Counted from the first letter of the stretch, positions 7,870-24,735 are shown. The stretch is DNA of 64,000 bases from a virus (IMGVR_UViG_3300021963_000077:1-64000), one strand, 5' to 3'. The notes: generated by a model from the letters alone, not told the origin. Numbers and translations: made by a program.

Positions 7870-7950
7870 GGGCGAGTGGCGAAATTTGGCATACGCGCTA
7901 GGTTTAGGTCCTAGTTCCTCGGAGTGTGGGTTCGAGTCCCACCTCGCCCA
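7870..7950 (+). tRNA. tRNA-Leu(TAG)
   Basis: GGGCGAG/CTCGCCC acceptor, CTAGG-TTTAGGT-CCTAG, long variable arm, GGTTCGAGTCC. Confidence 0.95.
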
Positions 7951-23507: not shown

Positions 23508-23537
23508 TTGACTGGGTGCATTCTTTGGTCATATATT
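23508..23537 (+). promoter_or_regulatory. SigA-type promoter
   Basis: TTGACT-18bp-TATATT; leader hairpin GGCT-AGA-AGCC. Confidence 0.55.
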
Positions 23538-23586
23538 TACCAACGGCTAGAAGCCATCAAACCACTAGAACACGGAGTTACACACA

Positions 23587-23807
23587 TGAGTGAGTATCAA
23601 AAGATTATTTCCAGCGGAAAGAGCAATAGAGGGCGCAAGCCACTTCCCGCAGACGAAAAGGCACGCCGTGCCGAGGTCCAGAAGGAACAGAACCGGAAGC
23701 GCTCCGAGGCCCGTCGTCGCGCCGCGCTCGTCCTCCAGCATCGTCACGCTGACGAATTTGAAGAACTCTACAAGTCGGAGTTCACGACCATCATGAACTC
23801 TAAGTAA
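23587..23807 (+). CDS. small basic hypothetical protein
   Basis: MSEYQK...RGRKPLP...ARRRAALVLQHRHADEFEELY; GGAG RBS. Confidence 0.7.
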
Positions 23808-23821
23808 GAGTTCAAAAAAGG

Positions 23822-23856
23822 AAAGACCCTCAGCCGGACGCTGGGGGTCTTTTTTT
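23822..23856 (+). terminator. intrinsic terminator
   Basis: AAGACCCTCAGC-CGGAC-GCTGGGGGTCTT followed by T-run. Confidence 0.85.
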
Positions 23857-23933
23857 ACCCCTGTATCCCCTCACTCTTATAAAGTGTAGAAAGGGTAGTT
23901 GGTGACACGTGGGTTCAAGTCCCACCAGGGGTA
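23857..23933 (+). tRNA. D-arm-less tRNA-like RNA with TAT (Ile) anticodon
   Basis: ACCCCTG/CAGGGGT acceptor + A73, canonical T arm GTGGG-TTCAAGT-CCCAC, CACT-CTTATAA-AGTG anticodon hairpin, no 5' D arm. Confidence 0.7.
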
Positions 23934-23979
23934 CAAGTTCTCACAAACTGAGAAGTATTGTCCATTTAGTGGATATATC

Positions 23980-24051
23980 GGGCGCTTAGCTCAGCGGTAG
24001 AGCAACTCGTTTACACCGAGTAGGTCGGGGGTTCGAGACCCTCAGCGCCCA
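23980..24051 (+). tRNA. tRNA-Val(TAC)
   Basis: GGGCGCT/AGCGCCC, ACTCG-TTTACAC-CGAGT. Confidence 0.95.
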
Positions 24052-24053
24052 CT

Positions 24054-24279: not shown

Positions 24280-24352
24280 GGGCCTGTAGCTCAGTGGTCA
24301 GAGCAGGGGACTCATAATCCTTTGGTCGTGGGTTCAATCCCCACCGGGCCCA
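24280..24352 (+). tRNA. tRNA-Ile2(CAT, lysidine type)
   Basis: GGGCCTG/CGGGCCC-A, GGGGA-CTCATAA-TCCTT; ileX-like body. Confidence 0.88.
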
Positions 24353-24735
24353 CTTTTCTTGCGTGGATCAAGAACCCATTTGCCATCCCTTGTGCCGAGG
24401 TATGTTTGAAGTTCGTTTGTATCTGGGTGACGCTTGAAAGTCCACGAGAACTCGCAACAAGGAGTATCTTCGCTACACGGGTGATGCCCAAAGCCGCCAA
24501 GGGCCTTGGCAATGGACGCAAAAGAACGTACAAGTCGCAAGCAACAGTCGTGGCAGAGCCTCACATAATCATCGTCGGTAACCGGATCACATGGAAAGTT
24601 GTCAGTAAATCCGCCGTAATACCCAAACGATCTGGGGTCAAAAGTCATCCCCCCATCAGGGAGTAAGGTTGATGTCTGCTGGGTGGCTGGGAAAGTATTT
24701 CCGCACTCGGAACAAATTGGGGCTTTTTCTGTCAT
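24334..24735 (-). CDS. Cys-rich hypothetical protein
   Basis: CSEC...GYYGGFTD...LCHDCC. Confidence 0.7.
   Translation of the reverse strand: MTEKAPICSECGNTFPATQQTSTLLPDGGMTFDPRSFGYYGGFTDNFPCDPVTDDDYVRLCHDCCLRLVRSFASIAKALGGFGHHPCSEDTPCCEFSWTFKRHPDTNELQTYLGTRDGKWVLDPRKKSGPGGD

Follow-up and report, generated by a model that had tools for sequence, protein, structure and literature searches.

A putative phage isoleucine tRNA with a rewired core and its relatives in phages and tRNA arrays

The locus and its tRNA genes

The window, i.e. the whole stretch of 64,000 nucleotides that was analysed, belongs to a tailed phage, which encodes a primase/helicase, a ribonucleotide reductase, a major head protein, a portal protein, a protease and a large terminase. 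The phage is present in marine, estuary and freshwater metagenomes. Ten canonical tRNAs are located between positions 7870 and 24353, namely Leu(UAG), Leu(UAA), Lys(UUU), Arg(UCU), Ser(UGA), Thr(UGU), Pro(UGG), Val(UAC) and two with the anticodon CAU. All ten canonical tRNAs of the contig possess either U34 or CAU, and neither Ile(GAU) nor Ile(UAU) was found among them by ARAGORN. This tRNA set is aimed at A-ending codons. AUA accounts for 30% of the isoleucine codons in 63 long ORFs (405 of 1363; 16.8 per 1000), and the GC3 of the long ORFs is 0.40.

Beside these tRNAs, a gene of 77 bases lies at positions 23857-23933 of the plus strand, which reads as an isoleucine tRNA with a rewired core. 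The next gene downstream is the canonical tRNA-Val(UAC) (23980-24052, plus strand), identified by ARAGORN and Rfam. It is followed by a canonical tRNA with a CAU anticodon (24280-24353, plus strand; ARAGORN), which shares 85% identity with E. coli tRNA-Ile genes over 74 of 74 bases. This tRNA is most likely a tRNA-Ile2 and as such a second AUA decoder, which requires lysidine; the full-length identity bears out the earlier note, in which a normal Ile2(CAU) had been placed 350 bp from the element. The other CAU tRNA gave no match in E. coli. Two AUA readers thus appear to be present in the phage, one requiring the TilS of the host and one not. No conserved protein neighbour was found in the window, and the small ORFs there have no known function.

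Upstream, a terminator-like hairpin with a 10-bp stem, a 5-nt loop and a run of seven T was read from the sequence at positions 23825-23856 (plus strand). It closes a small ORF (23508-23807), and its T run ends one base before the 5' end of the tRNA, so that expression of the latter would need read-through or processing. The hairpin may double as a processing signal. Rfam aligns it, below threshold, to the terminator of Thr_leader, and the same arrangement of hairpin and T run directly before the tRNA occurs in the close relatives L004, L009 and L013. A simple promoter and terminator scan, whose numbers were not above those of shuffled sequences, did not list this hairpin and gave one promoter-like site (23508-23537; 10/12) upstream of the small ORF. 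Two of 24 runs are recorded as RNA and two more were guessed to be RNA (0.05-0.06 of the sampled words); all of them consist of contigs and possibly represent DNA. The RNA-labelled contigs, which are likewise possibly DNA, cover positions 23862-23904 only, and this via the conserved core of relatives.

Structure of the element

The element has the order ACCCCTG / TA / TCCCCT / CACT-CTTATAA-AGTG / TAGAAAGGG / TAGTTGGTGACAC / GTGGG-TTCAAGT-CCCAC / CAGGGGT / A. The 5' strand of the acceptor stem (positions 1-7 of the element, ACCCCUG; 23857-23863) pairs perfectly over 7 bp with the 3' strand CAGGGGU (23926-23932), which the discriminator A follows (23926-23933 together). Both strands lie at the two ends of the gene in the normal order, and all seven pairs show compensatory changes in the family described below. 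CCA is not encoded; the next bases are CAA. The T arm (GUGGG / UUCAAGU / CCCAC; 23909-23925) consists of a 5-bp stem, in which four of the five pairs covary, and the loop UUCAAGU. The equivalents of G53, U54, U55, C56, A58 and C61 are kept, some of them invariant and the others in at least 90% of the sequences.

The anticodon hairpin (23872-23886) has a 4-bp stem (CACU/AGUG), all pairs of which covary, and the 7-nt loop CUUAUAA with U33, the anticodon UAU at 23878-23880 and A37 at 23881. It is preceded by C14, which is 26-like, and U15 (23870-23871); both are invariant in alignment A3, C14 being fixed by the search patterns. U15 faces U31 as a weak pair like 27-43, and all four bases occur at position 31 in the relatives. 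The anticodon arm comprises four pairs plus U-U, a 7-nt loop, U33 and a purine at 37. A UAU (NAU) anticodon, A37 and the discriminator A73 are the features of a tRNA-Ile.

A local D-arm hairpin between positions 9 and 26, as in the cloverleaf, is absent: A9 is separated from the anticodon stem by no more than 6 nt. The element has a 7/5 configuration of acceptor and T stems and, on the variable side, a 13-nt strand without a supported stem. The perfect acceptor and T arms and the TCCCCT before the CU-UAU-AA hairpin are as the earlier note had described them.

ARAGORN did not call the element in its bacterial, mitochondrial, intron or relaxed modes, neither in the window nor in the contig of 89.5 kb. 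Likewise, the Rfam model RF00005 missed it in a gathering run over the full window with fast filters. When positions 23780-24000 (221 bases) were searched, RF00005 aligned with 33.7 bits (E 1.1e-05) and thereby exceeded its gathering score of 29; this alignment deletes the D arm and inserts 18 nt into the variable region. A scan for acceptor and T arms over the whole contig of 89.5 kb recovered the ten ARAGORN tRNAs and the element with no false positive, which shows that the tRNA frame of the element is not due to chance.

A helix formed by two distant strands

Covariation proves a 3-bp helix, consisting of the pairs 11-39, 12-38 and 13-37, which encloses the anticodon hairpin. Its 5' strand is C11 C12 C13 (23867-23869) and its 3' strand G37 G38 G39 (23893-23895). 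Pair 11-39 is of the Watson-Crick type in all 257 sequences that were not filtered for this pair (CG 146, AU 79, UA 17, GC 15). As the early patterns had fixed 12-38 and 13-37 as C-G, scans forbidding C-G there were carried out, which yielded 190 matches and, among these, 115 distinct sequences with a tRNA frame. Pairing at all three helix positions was found in 113 of the 115; the two exceptions were rejected as chance matches, in which the anticodon stem fails too. In the 113 genuine variants, 12-38 is UA in 53, GC in 39, CG in 17 and AU in 4, and 13-37 is CG in 59, GC in 39, UA in 8 and AU in 7, at a chance rate of Watson-Crick pairing of about one third for a constrained pair. These scans and the count of 11-39 in 257 sequences are the independent tests of the helix; alignment A3 was pre-filtered for the register 11-13/37-39, and its 100% for the helix is by construction.

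In an alignment of 120 isoleucine members, 97.8% of the cells pair, compared to 65.6% in shuffles and 34-48% with slid partners. RNAalifold, unprompted, predicted the same 19 pairs including this helix, and 16 of the pairs show compensatory changes. The fold of the single sequence has an uninformative z of -1.28, and the register of minimum energy for this sequence (8-12 with 37-41) is contradicted by the covariation. A pairing of CCCT with a downstream AGGG, which would extend the anticodon arm, had been proposed; such an arm-extending helix does exist, and its register is shifted by one base to C11-G39, C12-G38 and C13-G37. In the former register (12-15 with 36-39), 72.7% of the cells pair, and bases 12 and 39 fail to pair in 82 of 149 sequences of A3, the alignment pre-filtered for the other register.

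Between the anticodon hairpin and the 3' strand of this helix lie U31, A32 and the linker G33-A34-A35-A36 (23887-23892). GAAA is invariant in alignments A1 and A3, where all search patterns fixed it, and it is replaced in divergent members (Mildred21, L418:18380-18454; Vibrio phage, L609:2495-2578). This stretch forms a bulge in the hairpin of the anticodon branch and would replace the variable-loop bases 44-47. At the other side, the junction U8-A9-U10 (23864-23866) is invariant in A1 and A3 as well, TAT being fixed by every search pattern. In general, the patterns fixed UAU, C14, GAAA, UA and GG, and the invariance of these bases is partly by construction.

Proposed mapping of the D-loop-like strand onto the tRNA core

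The helix is followed by the single strand U40 A41 G42 U43 U44 G45 G46 U47 G48 A49 C50 A51 C52 (23896-23908), after which the T stem begins. In the family, this strand has the form U-A-R-N-N-G-G-N-(N)-N-C-A-Y. A41, G45, G46 and A51 of the element, which are the first A, the GG and the penultimate base of this form, are invariant in both A1 and A3; TA and GG were fixed by the patterns and A51 was not. R42 and Y52 covary (A-U 166, G-C 61, other 30; A-U or G-C in 227 of 257). The same pattern of R/Y covariation is known from the Levitt pair R15-Y48 of ordinary tRNAs.

These observations suggest the following mapping. U8 and A9 keep their places; U10 N11 C12 C13 would correspond to bases 22-25, with 23867-23869 in the place of 23-25, and C14 to base 26. 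The bases from U15 to U31 would represent the anticodon arm (27-43), whose first pair is weak, and N32 GAAA the bases 44-47. G37 G38 N39 U40 would then be the equivalent of 10-13, 23893-23895 taking the place of 10-12, and U10 opposite U40 would be a U-U like 22/13. Positions 23896-23908 would continue with the equivalents of 13, A14, R15, 16, 17, G18, G19, 20, a spacer, A21 and Y48, followed by the T arm. According to this mapping, all universally conserved core bases would be present and segment 10-21 would be located behind the anticodon arm. The strand directions fit, since the strand after A9 enters the anticodon stem as 22-25 do and the strand before A14 leaves it as 10-13 do.

The earlier suggestion that the D arm had been moved 3' of the anticodon arm is strengthened by the enclosing helix and the D-loop-like AGUUGG 3' of it, with covariation and conservation in hundreds of relatives. 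The description as "D-arm-less" is misleading, because an equivalent of the D stem exists and is built by two strands far apart in the sequence.

Size and distribution of the family

A first pattern, derived from the odd middle part of the element, matched 28 places in IMG/VR, 18 of which were clear relatives. Further patterns matched 111 loci, at least 118, 62 and 56, and 91 and at least 120. After a check of the tRNA frame, which required Watson-Crick pairing in the D-like helix as well as 6 of 7 pairs in the acceptor stem and 4 of 5 in the T stem, 361 distinct relatives from viral contigs, metagenome-assembled genomes (MAGs) and cultured phages were obtained. None of the 361 was called by ARAGORN. 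A covariance model was built from 120 isoleucine members, after three of 123 had been dropped due to odd length; members score 73-97 bits and canonical tRNAs at most 24 bits.

Three sequences score in between (38-41 bits). L261:2816-2892 has the anticodon GAU and an ACC/GGU helix and lacks the GAAA linker, L609:2495-2578 is an Arg(UCU) member of a Vibrio phage with 84 nt, a 4-bp CCUA/UAGG helix and an 11-nt linker, and L266:912-987 (38 bits) looks like a decayed copy. The GAU members L050, L064, L106 and L108, which have UUCAG before the T stem, show a conserved mismatch at the bottom of the acceptor stem (G7-G66 or A7-G66) and G in place of Y at the 48-like position. The true family is wider than the motif that was searched, as the divergent members without GAAA (L418:18380-18454 of Mildred21, L609:2495-2578 and L261:2816-2892) demonstrate, and other amino-acid identities may have been missed by the sampling with patterns.

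The cultured phages with family members infect Streptomyces, Microbacterium, Rhodococcus and Vibrio. With the window element as query, 46 records with a coverage of at least 80% were found, and 45 of 49 matching records belong to Samistivirus/BE-type Streptomyces phages; the remaining ones include phages of Rhodococcus and Microbacterium. Arginine versions occur in Streptomyces and Microbacterium phages, and a divergent arginine version in phages of Vibrio crassostreae. When one genome for each of 185,579 species was scanned, 39 hits were obtained. All of these are true members and lie in MAGs of scattered phyla; none of the 39 is from an isolate bacterial genome.

Canonical tRNAs are located beside the element at 68 of 80 viral loci (1.5-kb flanks) and at 33 of 39 MAG loci; the latter 33 members sit in tRNA clusters with up to 30 genes. 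In three arrays of Actinomycetota, the rewired Ile(UAU) adjoins a canonical Ile(GAU). One sequence filed as a MAG of "Candidatus Paceibacterota" (JBAZIW010000001.1, L286) and the viral contig IMGVR_UViG_3300029288_000055 (L258) are both 362,763 bp long and carry the same member; the former is probably a huge phage that was binned as a bacterium. In a MAG labelled Rhodoferax (L288:805), ARAGORN detected a suppressor-type tRNA with the anticodon UUA, which reads UAA, in a cluster with a rewired Arg(UCU). The sequence possibly stems from a phage with a recoded stop codon.

Anticodons and amino-acid identity

A scan with free anticodon revealed UAU or GAU in all 45 unique sequences of the subfamily to which the window element belongs. 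When position 36 was required not to be U or position 35 not to be A, arginine anticodons were exclusively found, in 106 distinct sequences (ACG 50, UCU 38, CCU 12, UCG 4, CCG 2). The scans for variant helices gave UAU 66, CAU 17, UCU 12, GAU 12, CCU 4, ACG 1 and UAC 1. Taken as a whole, the anticodons of the family are those of isoleucine (UAU, GAU), CAU, five kinds for arginine and one for valine. Each can be reached from another by a change of one base, in agreement with one origin and later shifts of identity.

Other bases change together with the anticodon. At position 47, directly after GG, the arginine members have A with one exception (106 of 107) and the isoleucine members U with four (144 of 148). 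As discriminator, A is present in nearly all isoleucine members (143 of 148), whereas the arginine members have G (66), A (29), U (11) or C (1). The gene includes CCA in 75 of 107 arginine versions, compared to 15 of 148 isoleucine versions. A20 is the main and classic identity base of ArgRS. The strict coupling of A after GG to arginine anticodons argues that the synthetases read this strand, where the D loop would normally lie.

The earlier note had connected the odd architecture with the UAU anticodon and the avoidance of TilS. This idea has to be given up, as the same architecture occurs with GAU, CAU, one UAC and five arginine anticodons, and some of the phages concerned possess canonical tRNA-Ile(UAU) and tRNA-Ile(GAU) as well.

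Loci in cultured phages

The Streptomyces phages EGole and Mildred21, which are relatives, allow a comparison of the same gene positions, and this comparison gives the strongest hint at a function. In EGole, the canonical tRNAs Arg(UCU), Arg(UCG) and Arg(ACG) follow Gly(GCC), Lys(UUU) and Thr(GGU). Mildred21 possesses rewired tRNAs with the same three arginine anticodons in the same slots, one of them with G13-C37, and the only canonical tRNA-Arg identified in this phage by ARAGORN is Arg(CCU). Additionally, both phages have kept a rewired Ile(GAU) beside canonical Ile(GAU) and Ile(UAU). Members of the family thus take the place of canonical genes in one case, the arginine slots of Mildred21, and duplicate them in another, the redundant Ile(GAU) of both phages.

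A gene annotated as (tRNA) nucleotidyltransferase (about 173 amino acids; L141:960-1481 in EGole, L418:5168-5689 in Mildred21) ends 14 bases before the rewired Ile(GAU). A link of this enzyme to the rewired tRNA, e.g. in CCA addition, is possible. A tRNA-repair pair, consisting of an RNA ligase and a polynucleotide kinase, is encoded by Samistivirus phages, as is a Ro-like protein.

Most copies of the family are unannotated in GenBank, and others are labelled tRNA-Leu(UUA), tRNA-Phe(GAA) or tRNA-OTHER. Gene 108 of EGole (L141:1495-1571), annotated as tRNA-Leu(UUA), has the loop CUGAUAA; gene 169 of Mildred21 (L418:23368-23443), annotated as tRNA-Phe(GAA), has the loop CUUCGAA; and gene 147 of Mildred21 (L418:18380-18454) is annotated as tRNA-OTHER. 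These labels seem to be wrong, with the anticodon read two or three bases off.

Proposed function and alternative explanations

The element most probably represents a working elongator tRNA-Ile(UAU) that reads AUA and belongs to a lineage of phages and tRNA arrays with an internally permuted core; a probability of about 0.7 is assigned to this reading. The canonical segment 10-21, i.e. the 5' strand of the D stem and the D loop, would follow the anticodon arm, which it normally precedes. The resulting order would be U8-A9, the 22-25-like strand, base 26, the anticodon arm, NGAAA, the 10-13-like strand, A14 R15 .. G18 G19 N20 .. A21, Y48 and the T arm. As reconstructed from this mapping, the RNA would fold into the usual L shape, in which the D-like helix stacks on the anticodon stem and G18-G19 touch the T loop. 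Cleavage by RNase P, CCA addition, charging by the IleRS of the host and use by the ribosome would follow. Comparative evidence points to the decoding of AUA; charging and decoding are indirectly indicated by the identity bases, which change with the anticodon, and by the takeover of canonical arginine slots. The tRNA decoy considered in the earlier note gained neither support nor contradiction. Against a working decoder count the terminator-like hairpin one base before the 5' end, the anticodon stem with only four Watson-Crick pairs plus U-U, and the redundancy with the canonical tRNA-Ile2(CAU) 350 bp away and, in EGole and Mildred21, with canonical Ile(GAU) and Ile(UAU). An unmodified UAU anticodon could also misread AUG.

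For the family, a single origin is suggested, from which the identities would have spread by single anticodon changes; the proposed steps are ACG-UCG-CCG, UCG-UCU-CCU, UCU-UAU and UAU-GAU/CAU/UAC. On balance, the evidence leans towards a class of non-cloverleaf but translation-competent tRNAs of phages and arrays, in which segment 10-21 stands behind the anticodon arm and the L shape is rebuilt. Class I synthetases (IleRS, ArgRS, perhaps ValRS and MetRS or TilS) would read them correctly in hosts ranging from Actinobacteria to Vibrio, and the rewiring was perhaps kept since it hides these tRNAs from host enzymes by which normal tRNA-Ile and tRNA-Arg are attacked or controlled.

The last point leads to a role in counter-defence, which is compatible with decoding and would add to it. 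The rewired core would then decode and at the same time escape or soak up a host factor that recognises the normal D arm and variable loop of tRNA-Ile and tRNA-Arg; tRNA nucleases, toxins and modifying enzymes would be candidates. The redundancy with canonical isoacceptors encoded by the same phages would be in agreement with such a role, as would the RNA ligase and polynucleotide kinase of Samistivirus and the occurrence of the family in phages and tRNA arrays with no isolate bacterial genome among the 39 hits in 185,579 species genomes. Furthermore, it has been proposed that phage tRNAs evade anticodon nucleases (accessible text of PMC10264068). However, no defence system or nuclease is linked to the element at any locus examined, the restriction to arginine and isoleucine is explained equally well by common descent with single anticodon steps, and in Mildred21 the rewired arginine tRNAs replace the canonical ones and are not added to them. 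A role in counter-defence is thus regarded as unlikely.

Slightly less weight is given to a tRNA-like RNA that acts outside translation, as a processing signal, as a regulator or together with a phage protein, for instance one of the Ro-like or nucleotidyltransferase type. The terminator-like hairpin directly abuts the element, the Samistivirus copy begins 14 bases after a small nucleotidyltransferase gene in a phage with a Ro-like protein, and some allo-tRNA(UAU) species are translationally inactive according to the accessible part of PMC5389517. A neighbour of the Ro-like or nucleotidyltransferase type is, however, absent from the window phage. Moreover, an RNA without function in translation would hardly keep a full anticodon loop with U33 and A37 and have nearly all of its anticodons assigned to two amino acids. 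Nor would the identity bases be expected to follow the anticodon, as they do with the A after GG of the arginine members (106 of 107) and the discriminator A of the isoleucine members (143 of 148), CCA to be encoded in 75 of 107 arginine members, or canonical arginine tRNAs to be replaced in the same slots. This explanation is considered quite improbable.

A decayed or rearranged tRNA pseudogene without function, which the missing ARAGORN call, the low Rfam score and the lack of a D hairpin might suggest, can hardly be entertained, since 361 distinct relatives keep every helix via compensatory changes together with the core bases and visibly decayed copies look different (e.g. L266:912-987, 38 bits). 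Covariation and the identity-linked bases rule out a pseudogene as well as an attachment site and a YrlA-type RNA.

Significance

According to textbooks, every known bacterial tRNA is a cloverleaf. If the rewired tRNAs were charged and used in decoding, the connectivity of the cloverleaf would be dispensable for bacterial synthetases, EF-Tu and ribosomes, and only the three-dimensional arrangement of the core would matter. Nature would then have carried out the experiment "permute the core" hundreds of times, which would provide an engineering scaffold with many compensatory variants. The family would also be a natural case in which the identity of a tRNA changes through a single anticodon step. 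Phage tRNA inventories would moreover be incomplete or wrong (ARAGORN 0 of 361; most copies in GenBank unannotated or misnamed), which would distort studies on codon compensation, especially for AUA and the arginine codons.

The accessible text of a publication from 2024 (PMC11551756) states that all known bacterial tRNAs are cloverleaves. A description of the rewired layout was not found in the literature covered, which included the accessible parts of PMC7609411, PMC5389517, PMC13092985, PMC8007984, PMC3920477 and PMC8421152 and had most subscription journals outside its scope.

Comparison with known tRNA types

The rewired family resembles canonical tRNA-Ile and tRNA-Arg (RF00005) in the 7-bp acceptor stem, the 5-bp T stem with a UUCRANY loop and the 7-nt anticodon loop with U33 and A37. 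It also shares with them the discriminator, which is A for isoleucine and mostly G or A for arginine, the A20-like base of the arginine versions, the length of about 77 nt and the location in tRNA clusters. In contrast to canonical tRNAs, the two strands of the D stem are separated by the whole anticodon arm, and the bases of the D loop lie in what would be the variable region.

A linear order of segments that differs from the canonical one is also known from the red alga Cyanidioschyzon merolae. In its circularly permuted tRNA genes, the 3' half precedes the 5' half, and processing restores a normal tRNA. In the rewired family, however, the permutation is confined to the inner segment 10-47 and leaves the ends in their normal places. 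Simple processing cannot restore a cloverleaf from this arrangement, so that the mature RNA itself should be rewired.

UAU anticodons that serve AUA without lysidine occur in bacteria lacking TilS, e.g. in Mycoplasma mobile, whose tRNA-Ile(UAU) is a normal cloverleaf, and in canonical phage tRNAs such as the tRNA-Ile(UAU) of EGole (L260:17481-17555). The element has this use of UAU in common with them. Both of these are normal cloverleaves. The rewired architecture is not specific for UAU.

Mitochondrial tRNAs without a D arm, such as mammalian mt-tRNA-Ser(AGY) and those of nematodes, likewise lack a local D hairpin and have an extended hairpin in the anticodon branch (accessible part of PMC7609411). 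According to the same source, the bases of the D loop are lost in these tRNAs, which are shortened and flexible. The rewired family, in contrast, has the full length and keeps A14, R15, G18, G19, the A21-like base and the Levitt-type pair. Furthermore, it occurs in phages of bacteria and not in organelles, and the mitochondrial mode of ARAGORN finds nothing.

The allo-tRNAs including allo-tRNA(UAU), as described in the accessible parts of PMC5389517 and PMC7609411, are also non-canonical, stem from metagenomes and phages, frequently have UAU and are missed by standard tools. The similar UAU RNAs mentioned in the earlier note are probably allo-tRNA(UAU) (PMC5389517, accessible part), and the structure of these RNAs is a different one. 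The sources describe allo-tRNAs with 8/4 or 9/3 acceptor and T stems, a long hairpin in the variable arm and a real D stem-loop (PMC5389517, PMC7609411, accessible parts), whereas the rewired family has a 7/5 configuration with neither a variable-arm hairpin nor a D hairpin.
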